From the NCBI GenBank assembly GCA_965652015.1, contig CBFGVM010000001.1, forward strand, positions 1 to 44,311: 44,311 nt of DNA, given 5' to 3'. The notes under the pieces are model-generated. The model did not search any database, was not told where the DNA came from, and was given only the letters and a program-made list of their open reading frames with translations. A program made the translations under genes and the position numbers. Positions 5,584 through 42,417 of the stretch are shown here, one piece after another. The first letter of the stretch is position 1. Each line of letters begins with the position of its first letter. Source of the DNA: an uncultured Alphaproteobacteria bacterium (GTDB lineage: Bacteria > Pseudomonadota > Alphaproteobacteria > Rhizobiales > Xanthobacteraceae).

Positions 5584-5659
5584 GGGGGGACCTCCATTCC
5601 CGTCGGGGTGGGGAAGCCGGACGGGGCGGGCAAGATCAACGTGAAAACGTGTCGAGCTC

Positions 5660-5682
5660 GTGGCCGGGCCGAGCCCGGCCAC
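5660..5682 (-). terminator. perfect 10-bp GC-rich stem-loop between the small secreted-protein gene and the A2M gene (attenuator, terminator or RNA-stability element candidate)
   Basis: gtggccgggc (5660-5669), cga, gcccggccac (5673-5682) form exact inverted repeats. On the minus-strand transcript a UUUU run follows only after about 12 nt, so this is not a textbook intrinsic terminator. Confidence 0.35.
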
Positions 5683-11139: not shown

Positions 11140-11156
11140 CGGAGTTCTGGTCTGTG

Positions 11157-14100: not shown

Positions 14101-14276
14101 GCAGGTGCGGCCCCGAACTGGGCAATGGTCACCGATATCACCGGAACGTCGACGTTCGGCATGCGCGTGACCGGCAGCTTGCTGAAGCTGAGATATCCGA
14201 GCGCGCAGACCGCTGCGGCGATGACGAGAGGGGGGAGGGGGTGACGGATCGCCCACGCCGAGACATTGAGCGCCAT
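11157..14276 (-). CDS. efflux RND transporter permease subunit (AcrB/HAE1-like)
   Basis: 1039 aa with the canonical N-terminus MALNVSAWAIRHPLPPLVI. It has 12-TM topology with two large periplasmic loops, and the size fits the family. Confidence 0.95.
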   Translation of the reverse strand: MALNVSAWAIRHPLPPLVIAAAVCALGYLSFSKLPVTRMPNVDVPVISVTIAQFGAAPAELESQVTRTVEDAVSGVAGAHHITSGVSDGISSTTIQFRLGTDTDRALNDVKDAVTRVRGDLPRTISEPMVQRYDISGLPILTYAAIAPGKTPEQLSWFVEDVVVRELQGVRGVGSVERIGSVEREIRVRLDPVRVQGVGLTTLDVSRQLRGSNVDLAGGRAEIGGRDQAIRALAGAKTLADLAATRIALPLGGEVRLDDLGQVTDTISEPRTFARFNGTPVVGFAIVRAKGVSDVVVSKGVAARVEALKAAHPDVDLKLIDTSVTYTVGMYDAAMETLWEGAALAVLVVFLFLRDLRATVIAAITLPLSILPTFWVMDALGFSLNMISLLAITLSTGILVDDAIVEIENIVRHIRMGKSPYQAALEAADEIGLAVIAISLTIVAVFVPASFMGSIPGQFFKQFGITVSVQVLFSLLCARFITPLLAAYFLKPYQHAERPEGFTTRLYTRLVRWSVRHRFITVVTGLLLFAASIYGLTLLPSGFLPASDTARSLLFVELPPGSQLVDTEAATETIYKRLRTRPEVESVFVDGGRTPPVGTDIRKAALTINYVPKGKRTHSQSQLETIISRDLADIPDVRYWFLDDNGKRNVTFIVSGADPVTVANVASELAAQMRRLPSVTNVISTATLNRPELRIYPRRDLAVRLGVSTESLSETIRVATIGDVGPALAKFDAGDRVVPIRVLLEENARADPQVLEQIRVPSPRSGGVPLMALADIRFEDGPIGISRYDRQPQASVEADIVGGAALSEVSKAVNALPVMKNLPPGVKVSEGGDAELQAELFEGFGSSMRNGLMMVYAVLVLLFGSLLQPLTILFSLPLSIGGAILALIVTNLPMTTPVVIGMLMLLGIVTKNAIMLVDFAIEAIQRGVDRDTAIIEAGQKRARPIVMTTIAMAAGMLPSALAFGAGGELRSPMAIAVIGGLLVSTLLSLIFVPAFFTLMDDLGHLGFRLAGRFIGKADEPAPAGAPKAAIPDGHSSAER

Positions 14277-14753
14277 CAGCGTTCTCCCGCCTGGGACACC
14301 GCGGCCGCGACCGTCAGATCAGACGCGAGCATCGCTTTCGCACATCAATGACAGCGGGCTAGATATCGTCGCGCGCAGCTCATCTTCGCGGGCCGAACCC
14401 CGAGATGGAAGATGACTAGTTTTAGTTATCATCGGGCAGTCGGGCCGTCCAGTGCGACTTGTCGCCATGCGGCGCACGAGAGCATGCGGTGCACTAGGCG
14501 CCGCGTCCTGTTGTGCCGTTCGTCAGACCTGGCGCGGCCCGACCGCGGCAAAAAAACCGTAATTGAATTTGTCGTTAAACCGTGGATGAATGTCGATCCG
14601 GCACGAGGGCCGGAAGCACGGCGGCATTGGCGTAGGATTAACTCCCCGTAATGTCATTATCCTGCGGCGGCAACGGCGAGGACGGTGTGAGCCGCAAACG
14701 CTTCCTCGCGCAGAGGCGGTCCGCGTACCCATAGGGGCGCGGTTTGGTGACAG

Positions 14754-16616
14754 GTGTCCGACATCGTGCCGGGTCCAGGGCCACAGAACGACAATGCAAA
14801 CGTCGTCCGCCCTATGCCGCGGCGCGACGTTGTGCATTCGATCGACACCCTCCGTGTCACCGTGCCGAGGGCGCGTCGCGTCTACTTCAGGCCGGGCATC
14901 ATCCTGCCGATCTCAAGGTTGTTCGTCTGGCTGTGGGCCATCATACGCTTTTTCTCCGGCAACCTTGTCGATGCCTTTCTGCGTCGCGCCAGCGTCCAAC
15001 GCCGCGCCGCTCGATTGCGCCGTGTCTTTGAGGCTGTCGGCGGAAGCTTTCTCAAGCTTGCGCAGCAATTGTCGCTGCGCGCCGACATGATGCCTTACGA
15101 ATATTGTGCCGAACTGGGCAAGATGCTCGATCAGGTCCCGCCCTTCCCGACCGAGCAGGCCATCGCCATCATCGAGCGTGAGCTCGGAAGGCCGCTGAGC
15201 GAGGTGTTTGCGGTATTTGATCCCAAGCCGATCGGCTCAGCATCGCTGGCTTGCGTCTATCAGGCGCATTTGAGGACTGGCGAGCGCGTGGCGGTCAAGG
15301 TGCGCCGCCCGGGGATTGGGCCGCTGATTGCCGCCGATCTGCGAGCGCTGGACTGGCTGTTGGTGGTGGGCGAGACGCTCACCATCATTCCCCCGGACAT
15401 CGGCCGCCGTTTTACGGACGATTTTCGGACCATCCTGTTCAACGAGATGAATTTTCGCGCCGAGGCGCGCTACACCGACATCTTCCGGCGGCGCGCCGCA
15501 AAGCGCAAGAAGGACGTCACCGCGCCACGGGTCTTTTTCCAATACTGCAGCGAAGAAGTGATGGTGAGCGAATTCGTCTCTGGCATTTGGATGTGGGAGC
15601 TCTTGGCTGCCGTCGATCGCAATGATCACGAATTCTTGGAAAAGGTGGGTCGTATCGGCATCGAGCCCAAGGCGCTCGCAGGTAAGCTTGTCGTCATCAT
15701 GCTCCGCGAGGCGCAGGAAGAACTGTTCTTTCATGCCGACCCGCATCCGGCGAACCTTGTGATCATGCCGAACAACAAGGTCTGCTTCCTCGATTTCGGT
15801 GCCATCGGGCGATTCTCGACCAAGACCCGCAAACTGTTCCGCGAGCTCCAGCACCACATGTCGCGGGGCGACATCGGACGGATCGCCACTACCGCGTTAA
15901 GTCTCGCCGGGCCGCTTCCGCCCATGGATCTCGAGCGACTTCGCACCGAGATGGAGAGGATCTACTCCGATTGGGTTTACGCCATGAACAGCAGGGATGC
16001 TGAATGGTGGGAGAAGAGCAGCGGGCAGGCTTGGCTGCGCTTCATGGAGGTTGCGCGAGAATTCCAGATCCCCGCGAACTATGAGGGAATACAGTTCATT
16101 CGAACGTCGTTTTCGTACGATGCCATCATCACGCGGTTGAACCGAGATATCAACATCGTGAAGGAATATGAAACCTATGCCCGGCAAGCCGGCAAGGAGG
16201 CGCGCGAACGCGTGAAGCAGACCTTGCGCCAGCGGCTGCGCGGGCCGACAGATATGGATTACCTGCAGATGGAGGAGTTCGGCGACATGCTTTCGCAGTC
16301 TTTCTTCCAATTGCAGCGGAATCTTGAGAACCCGATCTTCCAATTCAAGAACGTGGTCGGAAAGATCGCCTATATCGCGTCACTTGTGCTCAAGCTCGGC
16401 TATCTGGTTGCCGCTGCGATTGGGATTGGTCTGATCGCGAATGCCGTGGCGAGGAACTGGTTCAACACCGAAATCAACTGGGCTCCCATCCTTGAACGGG
16501 CGACGACGTTTGGCTGGGTCCAGCTGCTCTTGATCATCATTGTTTTGATTGTGATCCGCAGGATCGTGATCCGATTGAACATGCCCGACACGAGGCCCCC
16601 ATCGGGAGCCGGCTGA
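14754..16616 (+). CDS. ABC1/UbiB-family atypical protein kinase with C-terminal TM helices
   Basis: 620 aa with ABC1 signatures (FLKLAQQLSLRADMMPYEYCAELGKMLDQVPPF; IGSASLACVYQAHLRTGERVAVKVRRPGI; FHADPHPANL). There are two C-terminal hydrophobic helices. The start is uncertain: GTG at 14754 or ATG at 14814. Confidence 0.85.
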   Translation: MSDIVPGPGPQNDNANVVRPMPRRDVVHSIDTLRVTVPRARRVYFRPGIILPISRLFVWLWAIIRFFSGNLVDAFLRRASVQRRAARLRRVFEAVGGSFLKLAQQLSLRADMMPYEYCAELGKMLDQVPPFPTEQAIAIIERELGRPLSEVFAVFDPKPIGSASLACVYQAHLRTGERVAVKVRRPGIGPLIAADLRALDWLLVVGETLTIIPPDIGRRFTDDFRTILFNEMNFRAEARYTDIFRRRAAKRKKDVTAPRVFFQYCSEEVMVSEFVSGIWMWELLAAVDRNDHEFLEKVGRIGIEPKALAGKLVVIMLREAQEELFFHADPHPANLVIMPNNKVCFLDFGAIGRFSTKTRKLFRELQHHMSRGDIGRIATTALSLAGPLPPMDLERLRTEMERIYSDWVYAMNSRDAEWWEKSSGQAWLRFMEVAREFQIPANYEGIQFIRTSFSYDAIITRLNRDINIVKEYETYARQAGKEARERVKQTLRQRLRGPTDMDYLQMEEFGDMLSQSFFQLQRNLENPIFQFKNVVGKIAYIASLVLKLGYLVAAAIGIGLIANAVARNWFNTEINWAPILERATTFGWVQLLLIIIVLIVIRRIVIRLNMPDTRPPSGAG

Positions 16617-16986
16617 GAGACGCACGGGTTCGCGAATGGAGATCGATAACGGCGTCGGAGGAATCCATGTGCCCCGGCCTAGCCGTCCAAGTAATGCACA
16701 GTCAGCCTCGTGTTTTTTCGTCGACAGAGCAAGCATCGGGCCGGCAAGCTCCGCCACGTCGTGCGACCATCCGCCTCCTTGCGAATGCTCGGTTGCCGAA
16801 CCCGTGGATGGGGGGTAACATAAATGTCGAGAATTCTAAGAGCCGGAGGCGTGGCGGAAGCAGGATGTTATCGCCCGAGTGACCTGGGCCGTGCGAAGCC
16901 GCCAACCGCGAGCGGCACGCCGACCGGACCGGATCGCGGGCGAACGGTGCTTTGAGATTCTACCCCCCAGGACCAGGAAGGACGCC

Positions 16987-17349
16987 ATGGACAAGCTCGT
17001 CAGACGTGTCACGGTTGTTCAGAGCAGCGGCGAACATCGCACGAGCAAGGTCGTCTATGAACGCGACGAGGATGAGGACGAAGGCGACGACGAGGATCGT
17101 GAGCCCAACCTCAAGTCGTTGGAGCGTGCGGTGAGGCACATGTTGAAGGCGCAGCTTATCTCGGCCCAGGATGCTTATCAGCGTCATCTCGATGCTGCCG
17201 CGAAGGGCGGAAACTCGTGGCTCGTCGATGACGCCTTGAACATGATGAAGATCCCCCGCAAAGCCGCGAAGGAGCTGCGAAAGGCTTCCCCCTTCCGTAC
17301 GGTCAAGGTGGAAGTCGAAGATGAAGACGACGAAGATGAAGGAGATTGA
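16987..17349 (+). CDS. hypothetical acidic protein
   Basis: ATG at 16987 is preceded by AGGAAGGA. 120 aa, with poly-acidic tracts (DEDEDEGDDEDRE; EVEDEDDEDEGD). No family recognised. Confidence 0.55.
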   Translation: MDKLVRRVTVVQSSGEHRTSKVVYERDEDEDEGDDEDREPNLKSLERAVRHMLKAQLISAQDAYQRHLDAAAKGGNSWLVDDALNMMKIPRKAAKELRKASPFRTVKVEVEDEDDEDEGD

Positions 17350-17351
17350 GG

Positions 17352-17618
17352 ATGGCGACAACGGCAGCGGGCACCACCGAGCATCGGGAGCCGCGGGAGA
17401 AGGCCAGCAAGCCCGAGATCGTCATCGTCGATCTCGACAAGGCGCAGAGCCCGCGGGACGTTAGGCTTCTTCGCAAGGGCCGGGGCAAGCTGGCGTCCCG
17501 TGTCGAGCACATTGTCAACGACCTGACCGCCGCCGGCACCGTCAAGCCGACGGCGCAGCCCGTCGTGATCGTGGTGCGCGAATCGGCGTCGCCGTTCTCT
17601 TTCCTGGAAGACGATTGA
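17352..17618 (+). CDS. hypothetical small protein, coupled to 16987..17349
   Basis: The ATG lies 2 nt after the upstream stop. 88 aa with the core EIVIVDLDKAQSPRDVRLLRKGRGKLASRVEHIV...PVVIVVRE. No family recognised with confidence. Confidence 0.5.
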   Translation: MATTAAGTTEHREPREKASKPEIVIVDLDKAQSPRDVRLLRKGRGKLASRVEHIVNDLTAAGTVKPTAQPVVIVVRESASPFSFLEDD

Positions 17619-17661
17619 GCGGGCGCGGACCGCACGAGCAGACATCCCTCCTCGCCGCGTT

Positions 17662-17681
17662 CCCTCGCCCGGGGGCGAGGG
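17662..17681. terminator. GC-rich hairpin between convergent genes (bidirectional terminator candidate)
   Basis: ccctcgcc (17662-17669), cggg, ggcgaggg (17674-17681) form an 8-bp perfect stem. It lies in the 89-nt gap between stop codons at 17618 (+) and 17708 (-). There is no clear U-run. Confidence 0.3.
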
Positions 17682-17707
17682 TGCCCGTTCGTGTCTGCCG
17701 ACCGCGG

Positions 17708-18937
17708 CTATCGGGGTGGTTCGCCCGCAGCTGAGATGATGCGTCCCACAGCGGACGTGAACATCGGCTTCAGCAGCAAGGACATGCCCGGCTGGTTTGC
17801 GAGCGCGAAAATCCCATTGCGCAGCCGAAGTTTCCATTGGGTGGTCGGCGCGCTCCAACGCGCCATTCGTCGCCCGGCGGCTTGCTGCCGTTCGATGGCG
17901 GGTTTCAGTAGCGCTTCGTAACGCTCGAGCGCGACCTCGATGCTCTGCTGCCGCAGCAATTCCTGCGCCAACAGATAAGCCGCCGCCATCGCGAGCGATG
18001 CGCCTTGCGCCGCCAGTACTGATACCGCTTGGCACGCATCGCCGACCAAGCCGACGCGGTGGCGCCGCCATCTCGGCAACTCGATCTGCGCGACCTGGTC
18101 GTAGTAGATGGAGGGCAGTGCCGCGGCCCGCTCGAGCGCGACGGGAACGAGCCAGCCGAGATCGCCGAACGCGGCGCGTAGCTCAGCCAAGGGATTAGCG
18201 ACGGTGGCCGTCGGCGACGCGCGGTGAACGAAGAATGAGGCGATGCGGCCACCGCGAATGGGAAAGAAGCCCACGTGCCGCCCGCGCAGCGAGAGCAACT
18301 TGAGCTCGCCATGCAGCGCTTGAGCGAGCGTGGGATGCTCAAAGGCGAACGCGGCGGCGCGAAAGCCGAGATGGCGCACGAACGAGGCTTCATCTCCGAA
18401 CAGGTGCGCGCGCATGGCCGAATGGATGCCATCGGCCCCGATCAGGACGTCGGCCACTTCGTTTTCGCCGCTCGTGAGTGTGACGTCGATCTCAGTCTCG
18501 AGCGAGTTCAGCCTTTTGATCTCGCGGCCGAATCGAACCTCTACCGTGTCCGGCAAGTCGTCGAACAGCGCCCAAACCACGTCGCCGCGCATTAAGCTCA
18601 GCACGCGGCCGTCGAGGAGGCGCCGGAACACCTCATAATCGAGTTCCGAAACCGGCCGCTCGTGCTCGTCGATCCAGGAGACGCGGTGCACCCGGTAGCA
18701 GAGCTCCTGCAAACGCCGGAGTAGACCCATCCGTTCGGCGACCGTGTAGCCCGGACCATAGAAGTCGAACATGTACCCTTCGTCGCGAAGCCGTGCAGCC
18801 TTCTCGACGATCAGCACGCGGCAGCCGCCCCGGCCCAGCCACCAGGCCAGGGTCAAGCCGGCGATGCCGGCTCCGCAAATGATCACTCTCGCGGCGGGGG
18901 GCATGGTGAGGCCGTGCGCAGATCCCCGCGGCGCCAT
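17708..18937 (-). CDS. FAD-dependent monooxygenase (UbiH/aromatic-ring hydroxylase-like fold)
   Basis: 409 aa with the Rossmann motif VIICGAGIAGLTLAWWL, DG motif GADGIHSAMR and GD motif VGDACQAVSVLAAQGASLAMAAA. The start ATG overlaps the stop of the upstream GNAT gene (TGATG at 18935..18939). Confidence 0.85.
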   Translation of the reverse strand: MAPRGSAHGLTMPPAARVIICGAGIAGLTLAWWLGRGGCRVLIVEKAARLRDEGYMFDFYGPGYTVAERMGLLRRLQELCYRVHRVSWIDEHERPVSELDYEVFRRLLDGRVLSLMRGDVVWALFDDLPDTVEVRFGREIKRLNSLETEIDVTLTSGENEVADVLIGADGIHSAMRAHLFGDEASFVRHLGFRAAAFAFEHPTLAQALHGELKLLSLRGRHVGFFPIRGGRIASFFVHRASPTATVANPLAELRAAFGDLGWLVPVALERAAALPSIYYDQVAQIELPRWRRHRVGLVGDACQAVSVLAAQGASLAMAAAYLLAQELLRQQSIEVALERYEALLKPAIERQQAAGRRMARWSAPTTQWKLRLRNGIFALANQPGMSLLLKPMFTSAVGRIISAAGEPPR

Positions 18938-20112
18938 CAGTTCGCGCGCGCGGCGAAATCGCGATTGAAGACTTCGAATGCGGGAACAGCGGGCGTCTGC
19001 GGAAGCAGGAACCCGGATCCGTAGCGAATGACCCGTGACATCACCGGGCCCAGGCCCCTCGCGAAGATATACGACGGCTCGGAATAGCAGCCTAACCTGG
19101 CCTTGAAGACGTCGCCCGTGGCGCCGAGCTCGATACTTGCGACCTTTTTGCGCAAAGCGCAGTCGAGCGCCGCATAATGCAAATTGAAATAGAGATCCAA
19201 CTCGTCATTGAAGTGGTAGTCGAGGCCGGCGTACAGCATGTAATAGGTCGTCGCGGTCTGCAGGCACCAGCCAAACGCGATGATTCGCGAGCCCTTGGAA
19301 AACAAAATGAGATTGACCTTGTCCCCCAAGCGGGATGCCAGCTCGTGCAGGTAATCGATGGTTAGAGCCTCGAACTTGACGCCAGCCCTGTCGCGCACCT
19401 GAAAATATAAATCGTGAACTTCGGGCGTGTAGGCTTTCAGGATCTGCTCGGCGTCTGTCAAAACCTTTATCTCGACGCCCGCTGATTCGAGTTTGCGGAT
19501 CGAGCGCCTGATCTGCTTGCGGTAGTGTGATTTCAAGGCCGCGCAATAATGCTCGAGGTCTGTGAATAACGGTTTGAAAAAGTACAGTGCCGGACCGGTG
19601 ATGCGTTGATACCCGAGACCGAGCAGCGGCTTGGTCCATTGCAAATCGTCTTGCCGGAACTCCCGGTAAACGACGGCATGCGCTCGCGCCGTCGCCGCCA
19701 ATTCGCTTATCACCCCATCGACGAGCGGAAGAATTTGCGGGCTCGCCTGCCGCGTCGCGAGAGCGAGCGTGTTATGTGCAGTGGAAACGGGCAGACCGCA
19801 AATCAGGACATTGAAATTTCGCAGCGGCAACATGCTTCCAGGAAAATGTCGAATGAACCAAGCCATCGCCTTGTCGGAGAAATCCGCCATGTCGAGCGTC
19901 ATGCCGGTCAGACAAGCGCATGCCGCCGGCCGCGTATCGTCATCGTATACGACAACGTACCAGAACCGGCAGCTCTGCTTCATGCTGCTCTCCACCGCGC
20001 CGAGGAAGCTCGGATCCATGATGATCGATGCGCCGGCTTGCGAGCGCACCTTTTCCCAGGCGGCAAGATCCACTTTGTCGATGGAAGGGAAGAGCCGATA
20101 ACTATGGGCCAT
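18937..20112 (-). CDS. FemAB/BioF2-like GNAT-fold acyltransferase (paralog A)
   Basis: The ORF begins at TTG 20115; I prefer ATG 20112 (MAHSYRLFPSIDKVDLAAWEKV...). About 391 aa. The C-terminal core IIAFGWCLQTATTYYMLYAGLDYHFNDELDLYFNLHYAALDCALRKKVASIELGATGDVFKARLGC is typical of the FemAB-like acetyltransferase fold. It is a clear paralog of 20273..21490. Confidence 0.8.
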   Translation of the reverse strand: MAHSYRLFPSIDKVDLAAWEKVRSQAGASIIMDPSFLGAVESSMKQSCRFWYVVVYDDDTRPAACACLTGMTLDMADFSDKAMAWFIRHFPGSMLPLRNFNVLICGLPVSTAHNTLALATRQASPQILPLVDGVISELAATARAHAVVYREFRQDDLQWTKPLLGLGYQRITGPALYFFKPLFTDLEHYCAALKSHYRKQIRRSIRKLESAGVEIKVLTDAEQILKAYTPEVHDLYFQVRDRAGVKFEALTIDYLHELASRLGDKVNLILFSKGSRIIAFGWCLQTATTYYMLYAGLDYHFNDELDLYFNLHYAALDCALRKKVASIELGATGDVFKARLGCYSEPSYIFARGLGPVMSRVIRYGSGFLLPQTPAVPAFEVFNRDFAARAN

Positions 20113-20141
20113 CAATGCATGGTCCTAACCATGGAACAAAT

Positions 20142-20157
20142 GCGAATTTGTATTCGC
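20142..20157. promoter_or_regulatory. perfect palindrome GCGAAT-N4-ATTCGC in the divergent GNAT-GNAT intergenic region (operator candidate)
   Basis: gcgaat (20142-20147), ttgt, attcgc (20152-20157). It lies in the 160-bp gap between the divergent starts at 20112 (-) and 20273 (+). Confidence 0.3.
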
Positions 20158-20272
20158 TCTGCGGACAAAGACAAGGATCGGGACCGCCGGAATGACGGCG
20201 TTCGAATGCTGGACAATCGCCGGCCGCTCCCCTAGGAGCGAAGCTCTATCGAACACACTCTCGCAGCCGACC

Positions 20273-21490
20273 ATGCTCTACAACTACCGGCTCTTCGACT
20301 CGATCGGCGACGTCGATCTTGCCGCCTGGGAACAGGTGCGCTCGCAAGCCGGCGCGCCGATCTTCATGGATCCGCGCTTCATTGCTGCGGCCGAGACCAG
20401 CATGAAGCCGGAATGCCGGTTCTGGTACGCGATCGTCTACGACGGCGACGGCCGCGCTGCGGCGTGTGCGTGCGTCACCCGCATGACCATCGATCTCGCA
20501 GATTTGGCCGATGCGCGCGTGGCCTGGGTCATCCGGCGCGCGCCCGGAGTATTCTCAAGGTTTCGCAAGCTCAAAGTCATGATCTGCGGATTGCCGGGAT
20601 CGCCCGGCGAGAAGACCTTGGCAATGGCATCGGCAAACGAGAGTCCGCACATTCTCCCGCTGCTCGATCGCGCGATATGCGATTTGGCGGAACACGACGG
20701 AATGGACGTGATCGCGTTCAAGGAGTTTGCGCAGCACGATCTGGAAGCGATGAAGCCGTTGCTCGAGCTTGGATATCGCTGCATCCCAAGTCTGCCGATG
20801 CATTTGTTCGAGCCGTCGTTCTCGGATTTTGCGCACTACTGCGCTGCCCTGAAAACGCGCTACCGCCAGCAAATCAACCGCTCGACGCGAAAGTTGAAGA
20901 ATTCCGGCATCGAACTATCGGTGCTGACCGATCCGGAAGAAATATTGCGCGTGTACACGCCGCAGGTTCACGCTCTGTATCACCAGATGGTGGCCAAGGC
21001 CGAGCTCAATCTCGAAGTGCTTCCGATCGATTTTTTTCGTCAGCTGACGTCGCGATTGAGCGGCGAAGTTGAGCTCATCGCATACTCCAGGGACTCGACG
21101 ATCATTGCATTCGGCTGGTGCCTGCATACTTCCGCGACGTATAGCATGTTGTATGCCGGGCTCGACTACCGGCTCAACGATCAGTTCGATCTCTATTTCA
21201 ATCTGATGTATGCGGGTCTCGATCGGGCTCTGCGAAAGGGCGTGGAGAAAATCCAGATCGGGCAATCCGCGAGTACTTTCAAGGCGAGGCTCGGCTGTTA
21301 TTCGGAGCCGCTGTACGTGTTCGCCAAGGGCCTCGGGCCATTGATGTCGCCACTCATTTACTATGGAGCGAACCTGCTCATTGCCGAAAAGCCCGCGCTC
21401 CCCGCATCGCACATATTCAAGAGCAGTGTCGCCGGCAGCATGACGGACGGAAAATCGATCGACAATGCTCGCGGCGGCTCTGCTGGCTGA
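20273..21490 (+). CDS. FemAB/BioF2-like GNAT-fold acyltransferase (paralog B)
   Basis: I prefer ATG 20273 (MLYNYRLFDSIGDVDLAAWEQV...), which aligns with the N-terminus of paralog A. 405 aa, with the same C-terminal core (IIAFGWCLHTSATYSMLYAGLDYRLNDQFDLYFNLMYAGLDRALRKGVEKIQIGQSASTFKARLGC). Confidence 0.8.
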   Translation: MLYNYRLFDSIGDVDLAAWEQVRSQAGAPIFMDPRFIAAAETSMKPECRFWYAIVYDGDGRAAACACVTRMTIDLADLADARVAWVIRRAPGVFSRFRKLKVMICGLPGSPGEKTLAMASANESPHILPLLDRAICDLAEHDGMDVIAFKEFAQHDLEAMKPLLELGYRCIPSLPMHLFEPSFSDFAHYCAALKTRYRQQINRSTRKLKNSGIELSVLTDPEEILRVYTPQVHALYHQMVAKAELNLEVLPIDFFRQLTSRLSGEVELIAYSRDSTIIAFGWCLHTSATYSMLYAGLDYRLNDQFDLYFNLMYAGLDRALRKGVEKIQIGQSASTFKARLGCYSEPLYVFAKGLGPLMSPLIYYGANLLIAEKPALPASHIFKSSVAGSMTDGKSIDNARGGSAG

Positions 21491-21549
21491 ATGATCGGGC
21501 GGCCCGGTCCACCGGTTCGGCGGTCGGCCTGCCGTCGCCAAACGATAGC

Positions 21550-24276
21550 TCAGGTCGCGAGGGAAAAGCCCAGCCCGTCAGCAACCCTGCCGAGATCCTC
21601 GATGGTGCGCGGATCAAGCCGCCCGCACAGGTGCTCGCTGCGAAATCCGGACAGCGCGAGTACGATCGTCTCCGCAGCGCATGCCAGCAACACATTGCCT
21701 CGGTCGGGCTCCTCGAGCAGGCCCAGCGCCGACGCTTCGGGCGCTCGCACGAGACCGCCGTCCACGATACGGACGTCGGGCCTTTCGTTGCCGAGATTGG
21801 GCGCGATATTGAACGGCCGCGAGACGTCGCACACCATGGCACACTTGCGCAGATGACGTGCGGAAATGAACGGAAGGACGGCGTTGGTGGCCGTCACGAC
21901 CACGTCCGCCCTGGGCAAATGCCGGTCGATATCCGTCGTGATGGTGATACCCGCGTCCACATTCGCGCTCGGCGTCGGGCGCTGCGTGCAGCGCCGTGCG
22001 AACGTGCCGGGAGCGAACCTGCGGCCGGAGGCGGCGAGCGAGGCCACATGGCGCTCGCAGTCGTCGGCCACGAGCCGCAGCCTAGCCATGCTCGCCTCGA
22101 CGGCGTCGGGATTACCGATGAGGATCAGCTCGGCGGCACGCTCGGCGCACAGCAGGCTCAGCGCATATCCGATGGCGCCAGCGGCGCCGACGACGGCGAC
22201 GGTGCAATCGGCGAGCGACTTCCCATGCCTGGCGCAGGCCGCCTCCAGCGCCTGCACTGCCACCCAGCTCGTGTAGCTGTTGCCGCTCGTCACAGTCACG
22301 CCCTTGCGCGCCCGTAGCGCCAGTCCGCCGAAGGTGATGATCGAGCTGAAGCCGGCCAATCCGACGACCTCGGCGCCGCGCTCGACCGCCGTATCGACCG
22401 CGCTCTGCACCAGCGCCACCGCTTCATCTTCCGAGAGCGCGACCAGCTCGGACGGCAAGTGCGGCAGCGCGACCAGCTCGCCCTCGGTGCGACGGCCATC
22501 GGCCGTTTCGACTGCGAGCTCGCCGAACGGGTATGGCTTGATGAATTCGGTGATGCGCGACTTCAATCCCTCCAATTCCGGGTCGCTGAACGGCTCGAGG
22601 CTGGGATCGAACCGTCGCAGGCTACCGGCGTCGAGCAGGTGCACGATGAACGCGAAACGCGCGCCGTCGCGGCGGCCCACTCTGCGCGGCGCAGCGGCGA
22701 CCGCCGTGGGTCGGGATGGCGCACTGAATGGAGGCGGCATGCGCGCGCGCGAGCGGCCCATGAGATGCCCGACTAGCTCGGCCGCGTCGCCCCGTTGCAG
22801 TGCGTCCAACAGCCGCCGCAGCGCGCCGATCAGATGGTCGCACAGCGCGGCATCGGCGATCAGCGGCGGCTCGATGCGCAGCACGGTGCCGTGAGTGAAC
22901 GATGGCGCGATGCGGATGCGCTCGACATTGAGCAGGTAACTGACCGCCACGTAGAGAAGCAAACCCTGCTCCTGCAACATAGCCAACATGCCGGTCTGGG
23001 TTTCGGCGAGGGCAGGGAGGTCCAGCTCGACTCCCAACATCAGGCCGCGCCCGCGGATCTCCTTCACCAGCAGCGGATACTCGGTTTGGAGCTGCCGCAA
23101 TTGCTGCTGCAGGTGATCGCCGATCGCGGCCACATGGCGCACCAGTCGTCGGTCATCCTTGGTCAGCTCCTCGATCGTCGCCAGCGCCGCCCGGCACGCG
23201 AGGGCATTGCCGGCGAAGGTGGAGCCGTGCCGCAGGTCGAACTGCTCCGTGTAGGCGTTCTCGGTGTAGAGACAGGCACCGATCGGCATCAGCCCGCCCC
23301 CGAGGGCCTTGGCCAGCGCAAGGATATCGGGTGTGATGCCTTCGGCCTCGCAGGCGAACAAGTTGCCGGTTCGACCGAGGCCGGTCTGCACCTCGTCGAC
23401 AATGAGCAGCATGCCGTGGCGGTGGCACAGCTCCAGAGCCGCCGCCATATAACCTGGCGGCGCGACGCGAATGCCCGACTCGCCCTGGATGATTTCAATC
23501 AGGAAGGCGGCGAAGAAATCGGGTTGGCCCGCCAACGCTGCTTGCAGCGCCGCGAGGTCGCCGAACGGGACCACGTGGAAACCGGGGACCGGAGCGCCGA
23601 AACCGCGCTGAAAGAATGCCGTATCGGTCGCCGACATTCCCGCCAGGGTGAGTCCGTGGAAGGCGTCGCGGGCCGCCAAGATCCCGGCGCGACCGGTGCG
23701 GCAGCGGGCGAGCTTGATGGCGGCCTCGACCGACTCCGCGCCGCTGTTGGTGAACACGACGTGCGCTAGACCGGGCGGAGCCACCGCAAGCAATCGCTCC
23801 GCCAATTCCCCTTGTGTCGGAGGGATCGACGCGATCACGAGGTTCGGCACGGCGTCTCGCCGTGTGCTCTCCAGCGCCTGCCATATCGTTGCCGGATCGT
23901 GACCGAACGGAACGGCTCCGAATTGGGCGATGCAGTCGGCGTAGCGATTGCCGTCGGCGTCGAGCAGGTAGCATCCTTCGCCGCGGACGAAGCTCTTGTC
24001 CAGACCGAGGCGCTGGTAGAGGAATCCCTTGTACGGGGCGACGTACCTTATGTAGGGGTCCTGCTCCTGCGCGTTCCAGTCCTTGAGCGACGCAAGCGCG
24101 ATCGTCTCGCCGTCGAGGAAGGATTTGCGACGCTCGTCGGCAGGCTCGCGCGCCGGGGCATCGTCCTTGGCAGCCGCCGCGTCCGGTGTGGAGACACGGC
24201 TGCGCTTGCGCAGGTGCTCCGCCAGTAACGCACGCTTCTGCGCGGGCGTGAGTTGCCCCAACCCCAAGCTGGACAT
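21550..24276 (-). CDS. fusion protein: class-III (omega) aminotransferase + acyl-ACP reductase (cyanobacterial AAR)-like NAD(P)-binding reductase
   Basis: The true start is taken as ATG 24276 (MSSLGLGQLTPAQK...), which overlaps the PKS stop (TGATG at 24274..24278). 908 aa. See the two domain features below. Confidence 0.85.
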   Translation of the reverse strand: MSSLGLGQLTPAQKRALLAEHLRKRSRVSTPDAAAAKDDAPAREPADERRKSFLDGETIALASLKDWNAQEQDPYIRYVAPYKGFLYQRLGLDKSFVRGEGCYLLDADGNRYADCIAQFGAVPFGHDPATIWQALESTRRDAVPNLVIASIPPTQGELAERLLAVAPPGLAHVVFTNSGAESVEAAIKLARCRTGRAGILAARDAFHGLTLAGMSATDTAFFQRGFGAPVPGFHVVPFGDLAALQAALAGQPDFFAAFLIEIIQGESGIRVAPPGYMAAALELCHRHGMLLIVDEVQTGLGRTGNLFACEAEGITPDILALAKALGGGLMPIGACLYTENAYTEQFDLRHGSTFAGNALACRAALATIEELTKDDRRLVRHVAAIGDHLQQQLRQLQTEYPLLVKEIRGRGLMLGVELDLPALAETQTGMLAMLQEQGLLLYVAVSYLLNVERIRIAPSFTHGTVLRIEPPLIADAALCDHLIGALRRLLDALQRGDAAELVGHLMGRSRARMPPPFSAPSRPTAVAAAPRRVGRRDGARFAFIVHLLDAGSLRRFDPSLEPFSDPELEGLKSRITEFIKPYPFGELAVETADGRRTEGELVALPHLPSELVALSEDEAVALVQSAVDTAVERGAEVVGLAGFSSIITFGGLALRARKGVTVTSGNSYTSWVAVQALEAACARHGKSLADCTVAVVGAAGAIGYALSLLCAERAAELILIGNPDAVEASMARLRLVADDCERHVASLAASGRRFAPGTFARRCTQRPTPSANVDAGITITTDIDRHLPRADVVVTATNAVLPFISARHLRKCAMVCDVSRPFNIAPNLGNERPDVRIVDGGLVRAPEASALGLLEEPDRGNVLLACAAETIVLALSGFRSEHLCGRLDPRTIEDLGRVADGLGFSLAT
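21553..22659 (-). other. domain: AAR-like acyl-ACP/acyl-thioester reductase (approx. aa 540-908 of the fusion)
   Basis: Compared from memory with Synechococcus AAR: FAFIVHLLD vs FGLIGHLTS; GLAGFSSIITFGG vs LGGFTSIIFENF; VTSGNSYTSW...CTVAVVGAAGAIGYALS vs FTTGNTHTAY...ATVAVVGATGDIGSAVC; NVLLACAAETIVLALSG vs QMFACFAEAMLLEFEG. The candidate catalytic Cys codon is at 21679..21681. Boundaries are approximate. Confidence 0.7.
22777..24054 (-). other. domain: class-III PLP aminotransferase (approx. aa 75-500 of the fusion)
   Basis: Motifs FTNSGAESVEAAIKLAR, IEIIQGESGI and LLIVDEVQTGLGRTG. The PLP-lysine context DILALAKALGGGLMPIGA places the Lys codon at 23308..23310. Boundaries are approximate. Confidence 0.8.
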
Positions 24277-27200
24277 CAGGCGCGCCCTTCCGACGCGAGC
24301 TCGCTCAGGTGACGGTCGACTTCCTTCTCGCTGAGTTCGTCGATGCGCTCGAGCAGGTCGGCAGCGTCCGCTCCGCTCAATGGCGGGCTCGGCTGCGCAG
24401 CGGGCATCCCGCCGTTGCCTGATGACTCGGCGCCGCCGCGGCGGTTGTCTTCGAGCAGCCGCTCCGCAACATAGGAACACAAGGCACTGATGGTGCTGTC
24501 GCTTTGCATGAACTTCGCAAGCGGCACATTCATACCGAGCTCGACATTGATACGGTTGCGCACTTCGACGGCGATCAGGGAGTCGAGGCCCAGATTGCGG
24601 AGCGACTGTTCGGTGTCGATACGGGCGGGTGAAGTACCCATCGCCCGTGCCAAGAGATCCTGGACGTAGGCCTGCAGCAATGACGGAAGCGCTGCCTCGT
24701 CCGCGTCGAGCAGGTCGTGCACGCCGGAGCCCGCGGACGTGCCCTCTTTTTCTGCGCCGCCATCGCTGACCAGTGTGGAATACCGGGCCGGAGTGCGCGT
24801 ACCCATCGATCGCAAGAGGCCCTTCCACTCGACCTCGGCCACCCCGACTTGGACGGCGTCGCTGGACAAGAGCTCGTCGAGCGCATCGAGGGTTTCAGAG
24901 AGCGGCATGGCCTTGAGGCCAAGCCGTTCGAGGCGTTGCGCAGTCTCCGGGCTTCCCGCCACGTGGCCAACCTCGCCAACCACACCCCAGTTGATGGTGA
25001 GAGCAGGAAGCCCGCGCGCCCGCCGGTAATAAGCCAGCGCATCCAGGAACGCATTGCCGGCGACGTAATTAGCCTGACCCGCATTGCCGATGAGGGAGGC
25101 GAGCGACGAAAACAGTACGAAGAAATCCAATGGAGCATCGAGCGTCAGCGTGTGGAGATTCCAAGCGCCGATAACCTTTGGCGCCATCGCCTTCCACATC
25201 CGCTCCTCGGTCAGGCGCTCGATCGGCGCATCGTCCAGAACCATTGCGGCGTGCACGATGCCTCGCAGCGGTCCCATCCGGCGCCGAAGTGTCGTGATGA
25301 CCTCTCTGGTCTGCTCACGATCCGTGATGTCCGCGGCGGCGACGAGCACTTCGACGCCGCGCTGCCGCAGGCTCTCCAGTGCGGCCTGCGCGGACGGCGA
25401 GGGAGCGCTGCGGCCGACCAGCGCCAGGCGGCGTGCGCCGCGGCGTGCCAGGTGGTCGGCCACCGCAAGTCCAAGACCGCCCAGTCCCCCGGTGATCAGG
25501 TAGCTTCCCTCCGCATCGACCGCGACGGATCGCAGACCGTTCTCGACCTTTAGTCCCTCGTTGTCCCGCATCGAGATGATCAGCTTGCCGATATGCTTGG
25601 CCTGCGCCATGTAGCGGAACGCATCCGCGGCGCGCGCGGCCGGAAACACGCGGTGCGGCAGCGGGCGGAGGCTCCCGCAGTCCACTCGCGCGATGACTTC
25701 CTGCAGCATCGAACGGGCAAGGCCCGCCCGCGCTCCCAGCGCGCCGAGCAAATCCGCCACGAACACGGAAATGTTCCTACGCAGTACCCGCATCCCGATC
25801 TTGCGGTTCTTGAAGATGTCGGTCTTGCCAATTTCGATGAACCGTCCGTATGGCCGCAGAAGCGAGAGGCTCTTGTCGATCGCGTCGCCGGAAAGCGAGT
25901 TCAGCACGATGTCGACGCCTTCGCCGTCGGTCAGCTTGAGCACTTCGTCGGCGAAGGCCAGAGTGCGCGAATCCATGACATGCGGCACTCCCAGCGCCGC
26001 GAGCAGTTGGCGCTTCTCGGGCGAGCCGGCCGTCGCGAAGACGATGGCCTCCGCTTGCAAGGCCAGTTGCACCGCCGCCAGTCCAACGCCACCGGTCCCG
26101 GCATGGATCAGCACGCGCTCTCCGCGTTGCATCCGTCCCAGTGTGTGCAGCGAATAGAAGGCGGTCAGGAAGGCGAGGGGGATCGTCGCCCCCTGCTCGA
26201 GGCTCAAATGGCGCGGCTTGTGCGCGACGAACTGGGTATCGACCGTCAGATGAGACGTCAAAGTGCAGGATTTGGCGGCGATGACCTCATCGCCCACGGC
26301 AAAGTCCGAAACCTGCTCGCCGACGGCGACCACGCGGCCGGCGCATTCCAAGCCGAGCAGCTTGCCGGCGGAGCCGTCCGCGGCCGCCTCCGCGGGAAGC
26401 ATGCCCATGGCCAGCATGAGATCCATGAAATTGAGGCCGGTGGCTGCGACTTCGATCTCGACCTCGGTGGGGCCAAGAGGTCGGTGGGCGACGCTGCAGG
26501 CGTGCAAGGAGTCGAGAATTCCCGGTCGCGCCACTTCGATCTGGAACCGTTTCGGGCTCTGCTCAACCGGCCGGCCCATCCCCTGCACCGTGGCCGGTGA
26601 TACCGGCAGCAGCCGGCGCACATATCTGAGTTCGCCATGCAGGGCGATCTCATCCTCGGCGTCGGTCCCGGCGTCCAATTCCGCGGCCAGCGACGCGATC
26701 TCCTCGCTGGAGCAGGTGGCCAGATCGACCAGTCGGCAATGCAAATTGTGGTACTCGTTGGTCGCGACCCTCGCGAACCCCCATAGTGGCGATTGCGCTA
26801 GTCCAAGCAGGTCGGCGCCATCAGCCAGCGGCTGGGCCGCATGCGTCACCAGCCAGATGTGATCGACGGCCATGTCGTCGGTCGCCGCGAGCGCCTGCAC
26901 CAACTGCATCACCGAGACGCAGCCCAGCTGCGCGGACGACGTGAACGCGTCGTTCGTCATCGTATTCGCCGCCCCGGTGTCGAGACTCCACAGATGTACG
27001 ATGCCAGCGAGCTGGGGGGCCTGCCTATCGAGGCTCTCCACCAAGCGCTTCATGTCGGCCGGATTGCCGCAGCGGATGCTGAAGTCCCTCGCTCCGCTGT
27101 GGCGGAAGTCCGCACCGTGCATCACCCGGATGACGCGGTCTCCGCGCTGCTCGAGCTTGCGGGCAAGCTCGGCGGCGGCGCTCGGGCGGTCCGCGGTGCC

Positions 27201-30200
27201 GGCGTCGGCGAACAGCAGCCAGCTCTTCGAAGCGTCGGATGCTTGCGACATCGATGCGGGCGATGCCGGCGCTCGAGGGCCTCGCGCGAGAATCACCGAG
27301 TGCTGCGCGTTTTCGGCCTCCGGGCAATCAGCGATGCACACCGTGCCGGTGAAGCCGGCTTCGCGCAGCAAGCTCCTCCACGTTTCTTGAGAAACGCAGG
27401 GCTCGTCCGCTCGCACGGCGTCGTCGAAGAGCCACCAGCCCTTCAGCAGCCCGAAGATCAAGGTCATGAACAGCCAAGGACGCGTCAGCTCCACGACCAT
27501 GAGCGTCCCGCCGGAGCCAAGGAGTTGCTTGAGCCGGTCGAGCGTGTTGCGCAGATCGGTCGTGGCATGCAGCACATCCGACGCGATGATCAGGTCGAAC
27601 GAATTGGCATCGAAACCCTGCTCCAGCGGGTCGCGCTCGATATCCAGCGTTCGGACTTGCACGAAGGGAAACGGGGCGAACTTGTGCTGTGCGTGCGCGG
27701 TGAAGCGGGGAGAGATGTCGGTGAACACGTATTCGGTGCAATGATCCGGCAGAACGGGAAGGACGAAGCTCGTCATCCCTCCTGTCCCACCGCCGACCTC
27801 CAGAATTCGCAACGCCTTTCCTTTGGGCAGGCGCCGCGCGATCTCGGCGACCGCTTTCTGCACCAACAGATTGTTGAGGCGGAAGCTCGGTGAATCCTGA
27901 TACAGCGCCTCTGCCGTCGTCAGCGTGCCTTCCGGAAAGATGAGGTTGAGCGGATCGATCTCGCCGCGCAGTACGGGCGCGAGTTTCTCTCCGCAAAGCC
28001 GAATCAGCATCAACTCGGCCTGACATTCCGGGAACTCGTCCCACAACGCCTTCCAGAGGCGGGACGGCTCCTCGTCCGAGTCGATCTCGCCGGCGGTCAA
28101 TTCCTTCAACATGAGCCGCAACCACCGGAGGTATTGCGGCGCCATACCTAATTGAGCGGCGAGTTTCTCGGTCGACAGCCCCTGGCGTGATGCCGGGGTC
28201 CAGCCCATTTCACGCAGCGCTTTCACGATGTAGGCGGCAACGGTCGCACGCGAGAGGGACTGAAACTCGCGCTGATAGCGGGCACGATTGAACCGCTCGC
28301 GCAGCATCTCGCCTTCCTGCTGCATGAGCGGTCCGAGCGCATCCAGCGATGGGAGATGGTGCGAGTCCCGACCTTGGCGTGTCGCCAGCCGCGGGTCGAG
28401 CTTCCATTGATACTCGTAGAGGGTGCTGAGCCTTCGTTGCGCCCCGGACCCGATCGGGCGCACGAGCAAGCCTTCTACTTCGACCACGCAACTGCCCGAC
28501 TCGTCTAGGATTTGGATGTCCACCCTGAGTTCGGCCGAGGTGCGCCTCGCCACGCGAGTATGGGCGAAAGCGCGGATCGGCGGCGCAGCATGGAAGCGCA
28601 CTCGCTCGATCTTCACAGGCACAAAGGTCTCGCCTTTGAGGGCCTGCCAGTTCGTCCATGTCGGCAGAGCCGCCAACAAGGTCTGAAAGCAAGCGTCGAG
28701 AATCGCGGGATGCAAGCGATAATCGGACAGATGCTCTCGTAAGCAGCTCGGAGAATGGATTTCGGCGAGAACCTCCCGTTCGTTCCGCCATAACCGCGCG
28801 ATGCCCTGAAACGTCGGGCCGTAATGATATCCGCATTCGGCAAAGCGGCGGATGCATTCGCGGTGGTCGAATGCCTCGGGGCAACGCCGGCGAATTTCCG
28901 CGATGTCTGCACTGGGGGGCGCTGATCCGCTCGATGACCTGACGCAGCCGTGGGCGTGGACGTCCCACGTATTCTCGGACGCATCTGCGCGGGTGCAGAT
29001 GTCGAATTCGCTCGTGGACGGATCGAACGCTACCTGCGCCAAAGGCGCCGCGCCCTGATCGAGGATCAGGAACTTTTGAAATTCGATATCCTCCACCACG
29101 CAAGGAACAGGCCCCAAGGTCTCGCGGGCGGCCGCCAGCGCCATCTCCACATATCCGGCGCCCGGAAAGATGACGGCGTCGCCGATCCGATGGTCCGCCA
29201 GGTAGCTCAAGTTCGCCGTGTCCAGCGCAACGCTCCAGGACGGCTTCGGTGCCTCTAGCCGGCTTCCGAGCAGGGGATGAACCGAAGCGCCTACCCGTAT
29301 CCGGCGCGTCGTTTCGGATTCGCGCCAATGACTGTCCGGCTGGAACGGATATACGGGCAGCTTGATGGCGGTCGCCTCGGCTGGATAGAGCCGTTGCCAA
29401 TCGATCTGGGCTCCAAGGGTATACAGCCGGCCGAGCGATCCGAGCAGCGCCGCCCGCTCGCGATCGTCCCGGCGCAGCGAACCCAGCGTCGCGCCGCCCG
29501 CTGACTTTTCCTCCAAGCACTGGGCGATGTCGTTTCGCAGGATCGGATGCGCACCGAGCTCGAGGAATATCGTGTGCCCGGTCTCGATGACCTTGCCGAG
29601 GGTATCGTGGAACAGGACTGGCTGACGGATGTTCCGGTACCAATACCGGGCATCGAGCTCGGATCCCGACAGAGCGGTGCCGGTCACGGTGGAAAAGAAC
29701 GGGGTCGTCGCCGGTCGCGGCCGAATATCACGCAAGCAGTCCAGGAGCTCCGCTTCGAGCTGCTCCATCCTCGGGCTGTGATACGGCACGTCCACGCGCA
29801 AGGGGCGGCTGAATACGTCCATCTCGTTGAGAGCCTGGTCGATCTCGCCGAGCACCGCAGCGTCGCCGGAGAGGGTGATCGACATCGCGCCATTTACCGC
29901 CGCGAGCGAAATGGCGTGGGGATGCCGTGCAATCCATTTGGCCGCCTCTTCACGGGAGATCCCCACGGCCAGCATCGTGCCTTGTCCGGCTGTTCGGTAT
30001 TGCAGGCGGCTGCGATGGAAGGTGACCCGAACGGCATCCTCCAGCGACAGCGCTCCAGAGATATAGGACGCCGCCATCTCACCGGCGCTATGACCCAGGA
30101 CGGCCGCGGGTTCGACGCCCCACGATCGCCAGAGCGCCGCGAGCGCAACCTGCAGCGCGAAAATCGCGGGCTGTCCGATATGGGTTTGCTGGATGCGCGA

Positions 30201-31988: not shown

Positions 31989-32141
31989 GGACACTCCCAG
32001 CCTGTAAGTATTCAGAATGCAAGGCTGTAAAGACGGCGTCAACCGCTGAGCCACTGGCGGTAAAAACAGACACCCGTCCGCTGTGCCACGGGTCTAGCGC
32101 GTTCTCTTGCGCGTCCAAAAGTCGCGCAGGAGTGTAGAACC

Positions 32142-32188
32142 AATTTGCAGGCAGAGGACACTAATTTGCAGAGGACCCTAATTTGCAG
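32142..32188 (+). repeat. three direct copies of AATTTGCAG in the PKS/CHAT divergent intergenic region
   Basis: Copies lie at 32142-32150, 32163-32171 and 32180-32188 (spacing 21 and 17 bp). Copies 2 and 3 extend to CTAATTTGCAG and are each preceded by AGAGGAC. In both, a GG lies exactly 10 nt upstream of the GC of TTGCA. Confidence 0.6.
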
Positions 32189-32306
32189 GCGGTTGACACA
32201 TGAACGCGAGTTAATGTGGGCAACGCCTGTCCGACCTATTCAGCGCGGGCGGTTTCCGAGTCGACGCGGTATGTACTATCTTCGGACGATTTTGTTGGAG
32301 CGGATC

Positions 32307-35300: not shown

Positions 35301-35471
35301 CGGCTGACGACCTCGGCCTTCGCTACCCTCGCGTCCGATCCGAAGCTCGGGCGCGCCGAAGCGATGCGGCGCGCGATGCTGAGCTTGCTCGATGACAAGT
35401 CGTCGACCGAGAACGCCTATCCCGCAGTTTGGGGTCCATTCGCGGTGGTCGGAGAAGGCAGCCGGCGATGA
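32307..35471 (+). CDS. secreted TPR-repeat protein with C-terminal CHAT (caspase-fold) protease domain
   Basis: I prefer ATG 32307 (GGAG 6 nt upstream; [31 protein letters not shown] signal peptide). There are about ten 42-aa TPR modules (..[33 protein letters not shown]..). The CHAT dyad is intact: [10 protein letters not shown] (His codon 35022..35024) and VVLSACNT (Cys codon 35175..35177). Confidence 0.9.
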
Positions 35472-42308: not shown

Positions 42309-42417
42309 ACGGGTTGGCGCCTCGCACACTCGGTCACTTGGGCGGGTCCGCCCGTAGATTGTTGGACCTTACCTCCAATGGCATAGGTAGCTATTGGGGG
42401 GAGAGAAAGGGAATGTC

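Follow-up and report, generated by a model that had tools for sequence, protein, structure and literature searches.

TamH of Pseudoalteromonas tunicata, from the tambjamine YP1 pathway, unites in one chain an aminotransferase (TA), a linker of ~50 aa and a thioester reductase (TR) resembling acyl-ACP reductase (AAR; ACP, acyl carrier protein), the reductase carrying a GxxGxxG motif and Cys887 (PMC9594044). In vitro, with NADH and L-Glu, it turns dodecanoate bound to the ACP of TamA into dodecanal and then into dodecylamine, and it refuses acyl-CoA (PMC9594044). Here we describe a gene of the same design, called TA-TR below, in a 44,311-nt contig of an uncultured Xanthobacteraceae bacterium (CBFGVM010000001.1, assembly GCA_965652015.1); this whole stretch is referred to as the window. 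The gene occupies positions 21550-24276 of the minus strand, directly behind a type I highly reducing polyketide synthase (HR-PKS). By its predicted architecture, the encoded protein belongs with the TA-TR enzymes of the TamH/KecF type. We put at about 80% the probability that, by analogy with these bifunctional enzymes, it releases the product of the adjacent PKS by reducing the thioester and then aminating the aldehyde.

KecF, from the koreenceine cluster of Pseudomonas koreensis, is likewise a fusion of an N-terminal aminotransferase with a C-terminal AAR-like reductase (COG5322). From genetics and bioinformatics only, it was proposed to reduce an ACP-bound type II PKS polyketide to an aldehyde, followed by transamination; a transposon insertion in the pyridoxal phosphate (PLP)-dependent aminotransferase gene of the cluster led to loss of the inhibitory activity. 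The authors contrast the fusion with the route of a 'terminal TR domain plus separate transaminase', and 179 such clusters were found (PMC6498172). In PigE of prodigiosin biosynthesis the AAR-like domain is N-terminal and a class-III transaminase C-terminal; on the grounds of its sequence and of feeding with thioesters, it was proposed to reduce a thioester intermediate and then to transaminate the aldehyde (PMC8341465). The coelimycin-type route (CpkC-TR / CpkG) employs a terminal TR of the short-chain dehydrogenase/reductase (SDR) type, in cis on the PKS, and a separate omega-transaminase (PMC5365063). PliA of the phurealipid pathway was considered as a TamH homolog and rejected, as its paper shows a carbamoyltransferase.

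Translated from the minus strand, TA-TR runs from ATG 24276 to the stop codon at 21550-21552 and encodes 908 aa with zero internal stops. The TGA of the PKS gene and the ATG of TA-TR overlap by one base (TGATG), and a Shine-Dalgarno-like element, GAAGGG, lies 8 nt upstream of the ATG. The window has a GC content of 60-68% and many spurious long open reading frames (ORFs), so that an artefact of annotation, be it two genes, a pseudogene or a chance ORF, deserves a thought; two separate genes had also been named, in a preliminary description of this DNA, as an outcome that would overturn the proposed fusion. The probability of such an artefact is negligible: the frame is continuous, and more than 100 full-length homologs, 890-935 aa long, cover 94-100% of the window protein from an equivalent Met start, retaining the catalytic residues at identities down to 46%. 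Models from AlphaFold2 (AF2) are confident as well. A longer ORF of 1092 aa, starting at GTG 24828, was rejected because it overlaps the PKS coding region in another frame and because no homolog is so extended.

The single chain, the order of TA before TR and the short linker reproduce the architecture of TamH and KecF. The N-terminal ~30 aa, MSSLGLGQLTPAQKRALLAEHLRKRSRVST (24187-24276, minus strand, as are all features up to the PKS), are kept only in PKS-coupled homologs and are a putative docking helix for the C-terminal tail of the PKS; AF2 places a helix at aa 11-27, with low pLDDT. The TA domain covers aa 66-505 (22762-24081). It is followed by a Pro/Arg/Ala-rich interdomain linker of 34 aa (aa 506-539; 22660-22761), which varies in sequence and length among homologs and falls below a pLDDT of 50 at aa 520-535, and by the AAR-like TR domain at aa 540-908 (21553-22659).

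The TA domain is a class-III (omega) PLP aminotransferase: Pfam Aminotran_3 matches aa 97-460 at 1.3e-86, and the closest solved structures are the transaminase domain of PigE (4ppm, 253.9 bits) and then the putrescine aminotransferase YgjG. The predicted Schiff-base lysine, Lys323 in LAKALGGG (codon 23308-23310), aligns with the PLP lysine region 'DVLMLSKSLSGG' of PigE and is kept in at least 90% of 21 homologs sharing 45-87% identity with TA-TR; TamH and KecF have an aminotransferase of the same class. One protein in the homolog alignment, P0111, perhaps a degenerate copy, has lost this lysine (IGDALGGG), differs by many other substitutions and has extra residues in its linker.

In HMMER searches of the Protein Data Bank, the C-terminal domain matches the N-terminal domain of PigE (4ppm, 8e-23; 44.7 and 39.5 bits when this domain is queried alone) and Synechococcus AAR (6jzu, 1.3e-12). 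NCBIfam TIGR04058, AcACP_reductase, matches it at 3.9e-21. The alignments set VAVVGAAGAIG of TA-TR opposite VAVVGATGDIG of AAR, and Cys866 (LLACAAE) opposite both Cys294 of AAR (FACFAE) and the corresponding cysteine of PigE (NGCMAE). The nucleotide-binding motif GAAGAIG (G697xxG700xxG703; 22168-22188) and the codon of Cys866, the predicted acyl-enzyme nucleophile (21679-21681), thus fall where an AAR-like reductase has them, as in TamH and KecF. Cys866 and the three glycines are invariant in the same 21 homologs.

Structure comparison agrees. A Foldseek search with the full-length model was swamped by the TA domain and silent on the reductase, hence we used a TR-only AF2 model (aa 538-908; mean pLDDT 87.3). 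Its top match is AAR (6jzy, E 6.5e-20, TM-score 0.74/0.79), while no generic Rossmann dehydrogenase does better than E 2e-7 or reaches a TM-score of 0.4. The Pfam match to Shikimate_DH is weak (5.6e-5, below the cut-off) and confined to part of the nucleotide-binding domain. From these matches of sequence, residues and fold, the TR domain is placed beside AAR rather than among shikimate-dehydrogenase-like families. Both halves of the protein and its catalytic residues thus correspond to what the preliminary description had recognised: the class-III aminotransferase with its lysine in LAKALGGG, and the AAR homolog with its Rossmann segment and its cysteine at the catalytic position.

The kinship with cyanobacterial AAR is predicted at the superfamily level only, for the fused domain scores 75.7 bits against the TIGR04058 equivalog cut-off of 449.7. 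AAR of Synechococcus elongatus (orf1594; 6jzq, 6jzu, 6jzy) shares with it the fold (TM-score 0.74-0.79), the Rossmann motif and the type of nucleophile, and a ping-pong acyl-enzyme mechanism like that of AAR is expected. Unlike the window TR, which is fused to a transaminase, AAR is a stand-alone enzyme of 340 aa that passes its aldehyde to aldehyde-deformylating oxygenase (ADO) for alkane formation; no ADO-like ORF was found among the annotated ORFs of the window. Nor is TA-TR a PigE in the strict sense, scoring 470 bits with the equivalog NF053554, whose cut-off is 850. On that profile TA maps to positions 374-729 and TR to 33-199; the domain order is therefore permuted. PigE/HapE, of the MAP branch of prodigiosin synthesis (4ppm), gives the best structural database match for both domains, with Cys and Lys aligned, but it has the order TR-TA, and its PigD/PigB context is absent from the window.

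An AAR-like fold may also serve another reaction. The second Foldseek match of the TR-only model (E 1e-15) is the 'terminal amidation domain' (TAD) of carmabin; the TADs of carmabin and vatiamide (9e4s etc.) are AAR-like domains in cis at the termini of nonribosomal peptide synthetases (NRPSs), with putative terminal amidation (bioRxiv 10.1101/2024.10.28.620694). They share with the window TR the invariant Cys and a place at the end of a PKS or NRPS assembly line. The TR domain of the window might accordingly form an amide as a TAD would, or reduce the thioester by four electrons to an alcohol, with TA acting on another substrate or supplying nitrogen; a cofactor preference that reads only as NAD(P)H is compatible with this, the segment after beta2 ('GNPD...') varying among homologs and giving no read-out of NAD versus NADP. 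We consider such chemistry quite unlikely. AAR and PigE are much nearer relatives of the domain than TAD is (HMMER 1e-12 and 8e-23 versus 2e-5; Foldseek 6.5e-20 versus 1e-15), the reduce-then-aminate enzymes TamH, PigE and KecF are marked by just such a fused class-III omega-transaminase, and TADs are C-terminal NRPS domains in cis that have no fused aminotransferase. The window TR, fused to TA and predicted to act in trans, is at most a distant relative of them. Neither TA-TR nor the PKS tail matches NAD_binding_4 or an SDR family in Pfam, which separates the enzyme from SDR-type R/TR domains.

The gene upstream (24276-32054) encodes a type I HR-PKS of 2592 aa with the domains KS-AT-DH-cMT-ER-KR-ACP; its true start is likely ATG 31988, as homolog alignments begin at about aa 20. 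A pattern search matched the active-site motifs of KS, AT, cMT, ER, KR and ACP; the motif of DH gave no match, though Pfam calls the domain. The ACP (Pfam PP-binding, aa 2463-2529; 24468-24668) has the DSL phosphopantetheine attachment site, and the protein ends 63 aa later, in a tail (24279-24467) terminating in ...ADLLERIDELSEKEVDRHLSELASEGRA that may be a C-terminal docking element, judging by the conservation of its motif. No thioesterase (TE) or reductase (R) domain follows the ACP, and none was found anywhere in the window. Coupling to a PKS stop codon, behind an ACP without a release domain, had been noticed earlier and is confirmed in both respects. In two metagenome or MAG (metagenome-assembled genome) contigs, L005 (2291-10001) and L010 (2299-9998), the orthologous HR-PKS is split into two or three consecutive ORFs, which could reflect a frameshift or assembly error, or a truly split PKS.

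This reducing PKS bears on where an amine could arise. Aminotransferase domains embedded in PKSs, such as those of MycA and McyE, aminate beta-keto intermediates. TA could by this precedent first aminate a keto group of the ACP-bound chain, the reductase then freeing an amino-aldehyde with an internal amine. Such an order of events is very improbable here: the PKS has a full KR-DH-ER loop with the nucleotide-binding motifs of KR and ER present, which should leave the finished chain free of keto groups, and the TA domain groups with transaminases of aldehydes and terminal amines (PigE, YgjG).

The neighbourhood of TA-TR was compared in nine contexts, namely the window and eight homolog loci, L008 and L009 being counted once. 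In all nine, the gene lies directly downstream of a megasynthase ending in a carrier protein, i.e. next to a source of a carrier-protein-bound acyl thioester, as TamH and KecF do; eight of the nine show a stop/start overlap of 1 or 4 nt with that gene, and L010 has a 2-nt gap. The megasynthase is an HR-PKS in the window, and the same HR-PKS stands before the gene in L003, L005, L008/L009 and L010. In L004, L006, L007 and L011 it is an NRPS of the form C-A-PCP-nitroreductase, i.e. Cy-A-PCP-Ox, the heterocyclisation motif DxxxxDxxS being present in the 'C' domain of all four.

The ends that face each other differ with the type of partner. PKS-coupled TA-TR proteins begin with the short 'xAQKRALLAExLRK' helix, and the PKSs of L003 and L005 keep the motif LLERIDE(L/M)..(D/K)EV that ends the window PKS; the NRPS partners lack it. 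NRPS-coupled forms have Pfam TubC_N instead of the helix, and their NRPSs end in '...EEGVV'. TubC_N (PF18563) gives no match in TA-TR of the window, whose short helix aligns with the last part of the TubC_N region of its sister homologs. Neighbour joining on the catalytic core puts the PKS-coupled forms into one clade nested among the TubC_N forms. Altogether, the N-terminal helix and the PKS tail are a putative docking pair. This Hyphomicrobiales clade seems to have acquired docking to type I assembly lines as a derived trait, because most of the distant TA-TR fusions sampled have shorter N-termini and the five annotated among them have no megasynthase neighbours. We found no description of megasynthase docking by this clade in the searchable literature, an incomplete library.

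Two of the NRPS loci, L006 (TA-TR at 10001-12763) and L011 (10001-12784), have the same neighbourhood as window positions 9293-24276, including DUF6200, DUF6312, an ABC1 kinase and an RND pump; before a TA-TR gene of 64-68% identity, the HR-PKS is replaced by the Cy-A-PCP-Ox NRPS. Both loci contain a FAAL-ACP, and L011 also a FemAB-like gene. It seems that the upstream synthase has been swapped and the release enzyme retained; the predicted products of L006 and L011 would be alkyl-azole methylamines.

The family reaches far beyond this clade. A search with the TR domain against 1.84 billion cluster representatives returned 2334 clusters at E <= 1e-3 and 1554 at E <= 1e-10. Among the 150 best TR-domain representatives, 97 have the order TA-TR (68 plain, the rest with further fused domains), 53 consist of the reductase domain alone, many of these probably being fragments, and none has the TR-TA order of PigE. 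Larger proteins with this fusion among P0141, P0157 and P0154 read FAAL-ACP-TA-TR (P0141, a TamA joined to a TamH), A-(class I/II aminotransferase)-FAAL-ACP-TA-TR and TA-TR-adenylation; P0191 is a TR-adenylation protein without the TA domain. The closest homologs share 60-96% identity and belong to soil-type metagenomes and Xanthobacteraceae/Hyphomicrobiales MAGs; Methylobacterium nonmethylotrophicum has one with 56% identity. An exact match to the window protein was not found in public assemblies, and a scan of genome contigs with this one protein yielded just two archaeal aminotransferases, both unrelated. Other relatives are found in Chromobacterium, Halomonas/Vreelandella and Pirellulales, among others. 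A metagenome scan with patterns of the TA domain gave 80 loci, mostly plain aminotransferases, along with ~18 TA-TR fusions, all of them distant (29-46% identity) and mostly with far shorter N-terminal extensions. None of the five annotated among these has a megasynthase neighbour. One, L026, has genes for an AMP-binding/adenylating enzyme and an acyl-CoA dehydrogenase beside TA-TR, reminiscent of tamA/tamT.

The setting of L026, the fused FAAL-ACP of P0141 and TamH itself, with its stand-alone A-ACP didomain as partner, bring up a different substrate: TA-TR could be a TamH-like fatty-amine synthase that takes acyl-ACP from fatty acid synthase, or acyl chains from another carrier, its adjacency to the PKS meaning co-regulation only. 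For the enzyme of the window this is unlikely, given that the PKS is left without any other release function, that the stop/start overlap recurs in eight of nine contexts and that the N-terminal element switches with the type of partner. We therefore favour release of the adjacent PKS product.

From TamH, PigE and AAR we infer the following chemistry, in which docking, iterative PKS action and tailoring are equally putative. The single-module HR-PKS, probably iterative, would build a saturated, possibly methyl-branched acyl chain on its ACP; having no thioesterase or reductase, it would recruit TA-TR in trans, its tail binding the N-terminal helix. The chain would pass from the phosphopantetheine of the ACP to Cys866 of the AAR-like domain, where NAD(P)H held at GAAGAIG would reduce the thioester and release the aldehyde. 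The class-III aminotransferase, with PLP on Lys323 and probably dimeric, would then use an amino acid donor to convert the aldehyde to a primary alkylamine. Finally, the FemAB-like acyltransferases and the flavin monooxygenase encoded nearby would probably modify the amine further. Such reduce-then-aminate logic, already suggested from the DNA itself, gains support from TamH in vitro and from what is proposed for PigE and KecF.

Several points weigh against this reading. The function of the window clade is assigned by comparison alone, and the transfer spans a wide distance, since the scores are far below the equivalog cut-offs (PigE 470/850; AAR 76/450). TamH and KecF are likened to the window protein by their published description, without a figure for sequence identity. 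The fold does not dictate simple reduction either, because the carmabin TAD is AAR-like and is proposed for amidation. As predicted, the cofactor stays NADH or NADPH and the amino donor generic, and the proposed docking is drawn from co-variation across no more than nine contexts. Neither a loading domain nor a FAAL nor a phosphopantetheinyl transferase (PPTase) is present in the window, so that the starter unit and the activity of the PKS are presumed; with no loading domain or FAAL, the PKS would act iteratively or on a starter of unspecified nature.

With TamH, the window protein shares the domain order, a similar size (908 vs 941 aa) and a predicted action in trans on a carrier-protein thioester. 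The partner of TamH, in contrast, is the A-ACP didomain TamA with a C12 acid of primary metabolism and no type I PKS, and neither a docking extension at its N-terminus nor a tail on its partner has been described; the pathway it serves leads to a bipyrrole, whereas the window has no MBC or condensation genes. KecF resembles the window protein as a fusion of TA with an AAR-like domain that would off-load a polyketide from an ACP. Its partner is, however, a non-canonical type II PKS with discrete KS/CLF pairs and a free ACP, as opposed to the 2592-aa type I HR-PKS with its putative docking tail. The product of KecF cyclises to a tetrahydropyridine; no keto group is expected on the window chain to drive such cyclisation. 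The coelimycin route has in common with the window a reductive release from a type I PKS and subsequent transamination, but its SDR reductase works in cis and without a covalent Cys intermediate, while that of the window belongs to the AAR family, is fused to TA and would act in trans.

Other genes of the window could tailor or export the amine. Convergent with TA-TR lies a FemAB_like / Acetyltransf_6 acyltransferase by Pfam (20192-21490, plus strand), a candidate N-acylating tailoring enzyme; a second acyltransferase of this kind (18937-20115, minus strand) and a FAD-dependent monooxygenase (FAD_binding_3; NCBIfam PRK07588, 5.6e-88; 17708-18937, minus strand), another candidate for tailoring and kept in L008 and L009, follow. 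A tblastn search with the FemAB-like and FAD-monooxygenase genes found no counterparts in L003-L007. Being conserved only in the closest locus, L008/L009, these genes are linked to the amine tentatively. L008, the closest syntenic locus, has three FemAB-like paralogs and a GNAT-like (Acetyltransf_9-like) gene; the monooxygenase and one FemAB-like gene (window 17708-20115) are inverted relative to L008 12773-19099, which points to inversion and gene loss in the window cluster. An RND pump of the AcrB family with two HlyD-type membrane-fusion proteins (Pfam; 9293-14276, minus strand) may export the product, its membership of the cluster being uncertain; ACR_tran genes adjoin TA-TR genes in L004, L006, L010 and L011. 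A Hyphomicrobiales MAG shares this pump (75% identity), the ABC1 kinase (67%) and the two small DUF6312/DUF6200 genes, which makes an origin of the window in that order very probable.

The latter two, DUF6200 and a DUF6312 that has long acidic runs, are small ORFs that overlap each other at 16879-17618 (plus strand) and also stand beside the TA-TR clusters of L006, L008/L009 and L011. Signalling or cell-death-like genes form a dense group at 32145-35471 (plus), 38797-40338 (minus), 42394-44229 (plus) and 36610-38757 (minus); they encode a TPR-CHAT protein, a pair of caspase-like Peptidase_C14 proteins of which one bears TPR repeats, and a CHASE2-adenylate/guanylate cyclase. Caspase genes of a similar kind also border the homologous clusters of L004, L006, L008 and L011. 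Elsewhere in the window, a bacterial alpha-2-macroglobulin of 1767 aa with the full set of MG domains is encoded at 379-5682 (minus), and a Na+/sulfate symporter (DASS/CitMHS-type) fused to a cyclic-nucleotide-binding domain at 7171-9153 (plus). Two ORFs without a Pfam match, at 5707-6126 (minus) and 41604-42308 (plus), start with hydrophobic, signal-peptide-like N-termini and have a common 'ADVAYV' motif behind this stretch.

As to novelty, the fusion of TA with TR, its use in polyketide release and a natural cascade from fatty acid to amine are all known from TamH, KecF and PigE, which precede the novelty implied in the preliminary description for the fusion and for polyketide release. That description was right to see parts other than those of the routes with a terminal reductase and a separate aminotransferase, the reductase being AAR-type and not SDR-type, and to see a natural counterpart of reductase/transaminase cascades; neither is news, for both are already published, the former with KecF. 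No new enzymatic principle is revealed. The sole aspect that may be new is that, in a sizeable set of uncharacterised Hyphomicrobiales clusters, the enzyme is paired through docking with the end of a type I PKS or an NRPS.

Going further, we can picture TA-TR as a portable, trans-acting 'reductive amination release module' of soil Hyphomicrobiales whose docking elements are exchangeable: a short helix would fit HR-PKS tails, and TubC_N would fit Cy-A-PCP-Ox NRPSs. In the window, several FemAB-like enzymes, possibly transferring aminoacyl groups, would receive from it a methyl-branched polyketide alkylamine and turn it into an undescribed class of N-acylated lipid amines; we found no description of such products from clusters of this kind in the searchable literature. 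We advance this picture tentatively and would give it slightly less than even odds.

If the assignment holds, the reduce-then-aminate release of TamH and KecF extends to the assembly lines of type I PKSs and of NRPSs. The naturally matched ends, where a PKS tail meets a short helix or an NRPS tail meets TubC_N, could then help to engineer amine-terminated polyketides and peptides, or serve fatty-amine biocatalysis. The locus also draws attention to a family of uncharacterised clusters of soil Hyphomicrobiales, Xanthobacteraceae among them, that probably make N-modified branched alkylamines and alkyl-azole methylamines.

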